DNA of 64,000 nt, taken from the NCBI GenBank assembly GCA_964016885.1, contig OZ024741.1, positions 12,648,001 to 12,712,000 on the forward strand, in the 5' to 3' direction. This DNA comes from Eledone cirrhosa (taxonomy: Eukaryota). Positions 55,289 through 55,485 of this stretch are shown here, piece after piece (positions within the stretch are counted from its first letter, which is position 1; each line of letters opens with the position of its first letter). The notes under the pieces are model-generated. The model saw only the letters and a list, made by a program, of their open reading frames with translations. It ran no database searches and was not told the origin of the DNA. Both the position numbers and the translations under genes were made by a program.

Positions 55289-55485
55289 ACGGGGGAAATG
55301 TGGTAAGGAACCAGGTGGACCGTAACGCACCAAAGTACTCAATACTTAGGGTAGTAGAGTGGGTAATAGGAACGAGTAGGACCCCGACGGCTGAGCTCAA
55401 GCCGTTTCGACGGCTAATTCTGGACGTCCAGAATTAGCCGTCGAAACGGCTTGAGCTCAGCCGTCGGGGTCCTACTCGTTCCTAT
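55289..55485 (-). mobile_element. GC-rich ~197-bp insertion in (TA)n: probable PLE 3' tail fragment with a fold-back inversion
   Basis: Flanked by (TA)n on both sides. The minus strand reads GAAAC-GGCTTGAGCTCAGCC-GTC (hammerhead 3' half), then TTGAGTACT, then (TA)n. Confidence 0.55.
55366..55485. repeat. Perfect 120-bp palindrome with no spacer, centred at GAC|GTC (55425/55426)
   Basis: ATAGGAACGAGTAGGACCCCGACGGCTGAGCTCAAGCCGTTTCGACGGCTAATTCTGGAC is followed by its exact reverse complement. Confidence 0.97.

Follow-up and report, generated by a model that had tools for sequence, protein, structure and literature searches.

Endonuclease-positive elements of the Penelope type (PLEs) leave a recognizable kind of insertion—in the accessible text of two accounts, inverted 5'-truncated copies are described together with a one-sided tail and (TA)n targets (PMC8557442, PMC3846280). 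For the PLE protein PAc, the available sections of a third paper report that in vitro it cuts and extends both strands, that it starts at two internal RNA sites, and that the PAc tail is the stretch between those two sites; the same sections derive no head-to-head products for PAc (PMC11167929). The pLTRs of PLEs contain a transcription start and an intron, as far as the accessible text of two papers goes (PMC8557442, PMC2377424), and pLTR introns can abut the ribozyme (PMC4209133). Both the route of head-to-head PLE insertion and the purpose of the hammerhead are described as open in the accessible parts of PMC8557442, PMC3846280, and PMC11167929.

Here we describe a 197-bp insert at 55289-55485 of a 64-kb window (the whole stretch of DNA analysed), made up of a perfect 120-bp palindrome and a 77-nt tail on one side, and lying between two (TA)n runs. 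We give a probability of roughly two in three to the reading that this copy is two 5'-truncated ends of an abundant repeat, set head to head in (TA)n by a Penelope-type endonuclease/reverse transcriptase. The initial annotation had already tied the palindrome to inverted PLE-type insertions, and the TA target, the head-to-head layout, the one-sided tail, and the presence of two family-wide ends bear that tie out. A literature search over mostly open-access titles and abstract openings listed nothing on this family or on a recurrent PLE inversion centre.

Structure and setting of the palindromic insert

A palindrome scan places the arms at 55366-55425 and 55426-55485; they are 60 nt each and 100% complementary with a spacer of 0 nt, so the spacer-less perfect palindrome claimed at 55366-55485 is confirmed with 0 mismatches. 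By script check 60 nt is the maximal arm length, and a script scan of the 64-kb window found no other zero-spacer palindrome with arms of at least 8 nt and a GC content above 15%. In the left arm the element sense is the minus strand and reads away from the centre (55425/55426), and the tail (55289-55365, minus strand) reaches the family's long 3' end, as seen in the sequence and in reads of run X13; the right arm, on the plus strand, terminates at the family's short 3' end (X13 and X14 reads). The left (TA)n run, 59.5 units at 55170-55288, is the likely insertion target, and a tandem-repeat scan gives 29.5 units for the right run at 55483-55541. From left to right, the observed layout opens with (TA)n and the long end, passes through the antisense arm, the centre, and the sense arm, and closes with the short end and (TA)n: one long and one short 3' end point outward, and the 5' ends meet.

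The tail holds a bulged stem of the form ACTC-hairpin-NN-GAGT (55337-55360, minus strand), a candidate marker of the start of reverse transcription. It begins 5 nt beyond the mirrored position of the short end, has a single match in the window, and arises in 4 of 20,000 shuffles of the tail; among the listed variable sites, those inside the stem (55341, 55348, and 55349) are all unpaired.

A foldable double-stranded RNA had also been proposed, and the computed RNA fold of 55289-55485 predicts a 58-bp hairpin (-137.1 kcal/mol, z -19.6); the computed DNA fold of the 120-nt palindrome reaches -80.7 kcal/mol (z -22.5). If transcribed, each such copy would be a 58-bp dsRNA and might serve as a substrate for editing or small-RNA pathways. 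The absence of mismatches had further been taken to imply a young insertion or gene conversion: the 0 mismatches in 60 bp stand, but youth is only loosely indicated, because they are compatible with up to about 5% divergence (95% bound, our own arithmetic). Only 1199 of 5792 X2 contigs and 2920 of 12,571 X14 reads (21-23% of records) reach 99% identity to this copy. The arms are identical despite this spread, which mildly favours one template or later homogenisation and suits the rival explanations equally well.

The window as a whole is eukaryotic repeat DNA, with two long satellites, a reverse-transcriptase remnant, and TA-rich tracts. The satellites abut, one with a 24-bp unit in about 1635 copies (1-38225) and one with a 19-bp unit in about 673 copies (38251-51027); the 19-bp unit weakly resembles the tail at 55334-55358 (best E 0.023), probably by chance. 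Irregular tandem duplications in blocks of 200-900 bp (51025-53647) directly follow the 19-bp satellite. Beyond the insert lie a 441-bp unit like a solo LTR (55598-56038), with TG...CA ends, 9-bp imperfect terminal inverted repeats, and short TA runs by eye, and a non-LTR retrotransposon ORF (56107-58462, plus strand) broken across several frames, with a Pfam RVT_1 match at E 3.1e-23. One of three scanned pieces of this remnant, which we take to be RTE-like, has a PHD-finger-like match. A tRNA-derived SINE was considered and rejected, with no tRNA in 51000-64000 and no B-box-like match within 55289-55485.

The repeat family and its recurrent centre

Eight of the 15 listed sequencing runs (X1, X4, X13, X5, X2, X14, X7, and X6) were aligned to the element; the wastewater run X11, with its small share, is left out of account. 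The family is abundant, with 15,953 contigs in X1 and 23,738 of 12.5 million reads in X13, and it is also present in organisms B, C, and D (34, 2, and 5 contigs). Pattern scans of viral contigs, prokaryote genomes, and metagenomes gave 0 matches with the first pattern. A looser pattern gave three metagenome matches, which were dismissed as chance—they lie in GC-rich contigs that share no more than 25 nt with the element and contain nothing of its remainder.

Two 3' ends recur across the family, a long one and a short one, and both run into (TA)n. The long end matches 55289: in X13, 1481 and 1553 reads enter (TA)n at 55294 and 55299, and this end adjoins (TA)n in 4 of 4 runs (X13, X1, X4, and X5). 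The short end matches 55485, with 1093 reads entering (TA)n in X13 and 792 and 466 in X14, and is found on (TA)n in X13, X4, X1, X14, and X2. Upstream, 16 loose-end rows (6 and 10 from two run sets, taken before 55426-55435 as the best rows of longer lists) fall into two subfamilies, each present in more than one organism. Four tail letters of this copy (55291-55293 and 55322) are G on the plus strand where about 95-99% of the family has A, a figure given for 55293 and 55322; two of the four come from the variant table and two from a loose-end consensus. They are possibly an A-to-I footprint or the mark of a small subfamily. In the RAD runs, read ends pile up at 55419 and 55432; the piles fall on an AATT site and are taken as an effect of the restriction library.

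The symmetry centre is a recurrent head-to-head junction of the family, seen in X2 contigs and in the joints of several runs; near-perfect mirrors at this centre occur in X2, in X14, and in one contig of organism D, which has the same junction. In X2 the mirrored arm has a depth of 86-90 thousand and the sense arm one of 3.77 million (about 2.3%), these being sums of contig depth rather than copy numbers, and 33 X14 RAD reads cover the mirrored arm. The X2 junctions usually fall 1-4 letters short of this copy. A deletion of 1-4 letters at 55421-55426 is listed in 117 X2 contigs, 76 of which miss one letter, with arms that start at TCCAG plus one extra G or C; each of the 8 X2 pieces listed runs across the stretch and has 4-9 gap letters. 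Full-length L1 junctions are marked by an extra cap-derived G (PMC11702581).

Of the 15 listed joints, 10 land at 55423-55429 and 5 elsewhere—a count biased toward 55426 because the reference arm starts there—and the long arms of the 10 start anywhere from 55332 to 55385. Among the five filler rows listed with a landing at 55426, only three (A, TTA, and ATTCA) match the native upstream letters. There are at least six centre classes among the copies, the centre varies by 0-9 letters, and the exact zero-spacer junction of this locus appears in no listed read or contig. Many copies extend upstream, with loose ends before 55426 in 929 X14 reads and before 55435 in 1790; the centre is thus a hot spot and not an absolute start.

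In both subfamilies the centre reads TTAGTY, which shares 5 of 6 letters with the Drosophila initiator consensus TCAKTY (PMC4581360). TTAG could equally be a splice acceptor; by eye, both X5 and subfamily B have CTAA 14 letters upstream. A TATA-like stretch is present in one X6 contig and absent from X5. In AT-rich DNA the initiator-like letters, the acceptor, and the TATA-like stretch are all weak evidence. As the cause of a cDNA stop at this place we rank highest an RNA 5' end set by a polymerase II start at TTAGTY, which is possible though short of an even chance; behind it, and on a par with each other as rather unlikely, come a splice-acceptor boundary and a stall in the loop of a native hairpin, with something else as a further option. 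If the centre is a start site or a splice acceptor, the missing C block of the hammerhead would lie beyond the visible letters.

The hammerhead-like half-core

Each arm, read away from the centre, carries GAAAC, a 5-bp stem with a GAGCTC loop, and GTC—a likeness to the 3' half of a hammerhead (GAAA, stem III, and the GUC site). The motif occurs twice in the window, at 55443-55465 on the plus strand (predicted cut after 55465) and at 55386-55408 on the minus strand; allowing up to 3 mismatches yields no third occurrence. The initial annotation had described GAAA, stem III, and GUC on each strand without a CUGANGA box, and the motif scan agrees: neither strand of 55289-55485 contains CTGANGA at 0-1 mismatch, no CUGANGA follows GAAA or the cut site within the element (the type II or SGC, CSG, and GCS order), and none of the listed read variants of the tail creates one. 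The "long stem II" of the same account stands insofar as the arms do pair as a long stem; that stem is produced only by the mirror, and so is no independent evidence of a ribozyme helix. Intact paralogs had been expected to show CCCC-CTGANGA upstream, and none does among the 16 listed rows, within 30 letters each; the visible upstream letters reach 47 nt before GAAA in subfamily A and 38 nt in subfamily B.

What remains is a half-core, GAAA followed by a stem III closed by an A-U pair and an NUH site. In dinucleotide shuffles of the 137-nt monomer, GAAA with a closed stem of at least 4 bp and UH arises in 42 of 5000, falling to 9 of 5000 with a stem of at least 5 bp and rising to 144 of 5000 with G-U pairs permitted; these figures are lenient, since the motif was picked after being seen. 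A competing 6-bp hairpin with a CGAA loop (55436-55451, plus strand) masks GAAA in the computed monomer fold, and over the first 62 nt the competing fold reaches -13.5 kcal/mol, compared with -12.7 when stem III forms. GAAA and GTC are untouched by the listed variants, which lie at the loop end of stem III (55451, 55452, and 55459) or retain a G-U pair (55462); the exceptions are low-level changes at 55447 and 55448. Two-sided covariation in stem III was not seen. Rfam gave 0 hits at gathering score in the window, and its 42 hits around the element at E of at most 10 include none at gathering score and no hammerhead. This blank is weak evidence, because Rfam also misses two complete type I motifs in the same window.

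Those two motifs belong to other families. One is a complete minimal type I hammerhead-like motif at 54731-54785 (plus strand), with a 5-bp stem I, CTGAAGA, a 26-nt stem II region, GAAA, a palindromic TATATATA, and an AUA site; six-frame translation of 54300-55170 shows no evident ORF remnant around it. The other, of a third family, lies at 63689-63746 (minus strand), where a long (AT)n tract is some 200 nt away, and has a 4-bp stem I, CTGATGA, a 31-nt spacer, GAAA, a GATC loop, and an AUA site.

The element does not amount to a complete hammerhead in any of the described orders, and the palindrome copy is predicted not to self-cleave, given the absent C block, the competing local hairpin, and the 58-bp global hairpin. 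A rearranged hammerhead was rejected for this element, with no C block downstream and, by eye, nothing to pair as stem III for a cut at the centre. Cuts of the HDV-like and hatchet kinds there were dropped after comparison by eye with consensus features. The hammerhead likeness might then be accidental or vestigial, the family never having had a working ribozyme here. AGCCGTC is repeated on both sides of GAAAC, and the missing C block (within the element as well as across what is visible upstream in paralogs), the slightly more stable competing hairpin, the lack of any Rfam hammerhead match even at E 10, and the lack of two-sided covariation lean the same way; but the half-core is found in only 9-42 of 5000 shuffles, the listed variants mostly spare what a stem III would need spared, PLE hammerheads typically have a palindromic loop III (PMC4209133), and Rfam is silent on the two complete hammerheads too. 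On balance we think an accidental or vestigial motif rather unlikely; it concerns the motif and not the insertion route, and is compatible with priming from both sides.

A more specific and still unlikely reading is that the family RNA starts in loop II of a split hammerhead, with a promoter or intron between CUGANGA and GAAA, so that the transcript would have just half of the ribozyme at its 5' end and could not cut itself, and that a PLE enzyme copies it from two fixed starts, on both strands of a single cut, and runs off the same capped 5' end on both sides. If so, the palindromes would record two-sided target-primed reverse transcription and map the RNA 5' end to the base.

Origin of the palindrome and comparison with known systems

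In the route we favour, a Penelope-type endonuclease/reverse transcriptase would cut both target strands in a TA run, and element RNA would be copied inward from each side of the cut. Priming of one DNA end at the distal start would give the long end and its 77-nt tail; the second DNA end, primed at the proximal start, would give the short end. Both cDNAs would halt at the same place and then be joined end to end. Priming from both sides of one cut would give exactly the observed layout, and end-joining of two cDNAs the scatter of 0-9 letters at the centre. The ACTC...GAGT stem near the short end and the two complete type I hammerheads in the window are also counted in favour; the tail, at 77 nt longer than the published 30-40 bp, is counted against a PLE reading. 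No PLE ORF was found in or beside the 197-bp insert, and eight element motifs compared with the supplement of Craig et al. (PMC8557442) gave no matching element and 2 matches of one 8-mer in unrelated sequence.

The initial annotation had instead derived the palindrome from a cDNA that folded back on its native stem II and primed itself, an intact type I hammerhead thereby losing its 5' half to an inverted copy. Self-priming has been proposed for Penelope palindromes in the accessible text of PMC3846280 and self-annealing for L1 ends (PMC11702581), such an origin would explain the identical arms, and the centre does lie within the loop of a weak native hairpin (GGCTA/TAGCC, ATTCT/AGAAT) in one paralog, an X5 loose end examined by eye. 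To that extent a centre at the stem II loop is upheld; however, the loop is neither kept nor fixed. A fold-back should leave the native loop as a constant spacer, whereas it is cut mid-way and the centres vary by 1-9 letters, which disfavours this origin. The listed upstream rows lack CTGANGA, the depth of the 33 X14 reads on the mirrored arm is flat through 55409, the expected end of a simple, intact stem II, and a fold-back alone leaves unexplained why the second arm terminates at the family's other shared 3' end. We consider it improbable, and two-sided priming explains the layout better. With its two fixed 3' ends and its recurrent 5' junction, this abundant and apparently young family would allow two-sided priming and self-priming to be separated through counts of whole copies.

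At similarly long odds stands the idea that the whole palindrome is propagated together: a master copy already in head-to-head form would give an RNA hairpin, antisense in part to the strand of the ribozyme, and this RNA would be retrotransposed in full. It would account for identical arms and a recurrent centre, an antisense template has been proposed for Penelope in the accessible text of PMC3846280, and all four minority letters of the tail are A-to-G on the plus strand, as plus-strand RNA editing would give; three of these four are adjacent, though, and may be one event, G occurs at these sites in 4-5% of X13 reads and so may mark a small subfamily, and the six or more centre classes and scattered long-arm lengths point to repeated new formation. 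A palindromic DNA transposon of the MITE or fold-back type could also target TA, and palindromic DNA-class repeats exist, such as frog Harbinger (PMC5625713); yet the outer ends carry no inverted repeats, the 77-nt asymmetry and variable 5' truncation leave no constant structure, and just about 2.3% of X2 depth enters the mirrored arm at this centre, making this highly improbable; the reads already suggest that whole copies are mostly single-armed or asymmetric. Hardly credible is an artefact of assembly or of library fold-back. It would fit the absence of the exact junction from every listed read and contig and of any record spanning the (TA)n flanks, but past 60 bp the mirror gives way to unrelated flanks, the two ends agree with those of the family, and near-identical junctions occur in runs of three studies and two organisms (X1/X2/X4, X13/X14, and X7), which supports the palindrome as genuine sequence.

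Among described systems, known hammerheads share with the motif here GAAA, the C before it, the A-U pair, the GUC site, and a palindromic loop III, and paired motifs on opposite strands 100-700 bp apart are noted there too; unlike them, the element and the visible upstream sequence of its paralogs lack CUGANGA, and stem III has 4-5 bp instead of the usual 1-2. GAAA may be part of a ribozyme even where no CUGANGA adjoins it upstream, as shown by the type-SGC, CSG, and GCS hammerheads in the accessible text of Eckert et al. 2023 (PMC10085705) and by the "half-core" ends of Naiad (available supplement of PMC8557442). In contrast to both, GAAA and the cut site here form a simple hairpin with no downstream CUGANGA within the element. 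In that supplement, as far as it is accessible, octopus Naiad ends have GAAAC and then a downstream CTGATGA in a sequence that differs from this family; by eye, the 3' ends of Naiad_Ovul and Naiad_Obim run from a cut-site block to GAAA to CTGATGA, with matching stem I/III partners.

No tandem array is present at the locus, none of the 15 listed joints is a back-joint of monomer length, and the family is not a tandem retrozyme. Non-LTR retrozymes of animals were reportedly treated by Cervera and de la Pena in 2020. As described in the accessible part of Li, Clavereau and Pollet 2026 (10.64898/2026.07.22.740005), such elements are likewise short, non-coding, of high copy, and probably PLE-mobilised; unlike in them, no tandem monomers and no complete ribozyme were seen in the family here, and its long end adjoins (TA)n and not the next unit.

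PAc, from a Poseidon element of Anolis carolinensis (Frangieh et al. 2024, PMC11167929, accessible sections), is alike in having two reverse-transcription starts that bracket the tail, extension of both target strands, an AT-rich target, and a hammerhead upstream of the starts; it differs in having a complete type I hammerhead and an ORF, whereas for the present family every step is inferred from DNA. Closest are the endonuclease-positive PLE insertions in the available text of Arkhipova et al. 2013 (PMC3846280) and Craig et al. 2021 (PMC8557442), which have a head-to-head palindromic junction, a one-sided tail, 5' truncation, (TA)n targets as in the Hydra, Naiad, and Neptune groups, and a hammerhead-like motif near the 3' end. 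This family matches them in its inverted 5'-truncated copy joined at the 5' end, its one-sided tail, its two discrete 3' ends, and its (TA)n target; set against what those texts describe, it is without a linked ORF, its tail is the longer, its centre recurs at one spot, and its GAAA stem has no neighbouring CUGANGA. The single locus is the ordinary footprint of a known insertion kind—and it is the recurrent centre, together with the gap at the CUGANGA position across the visible letters of the family, that sets this family apart as a modest variant.
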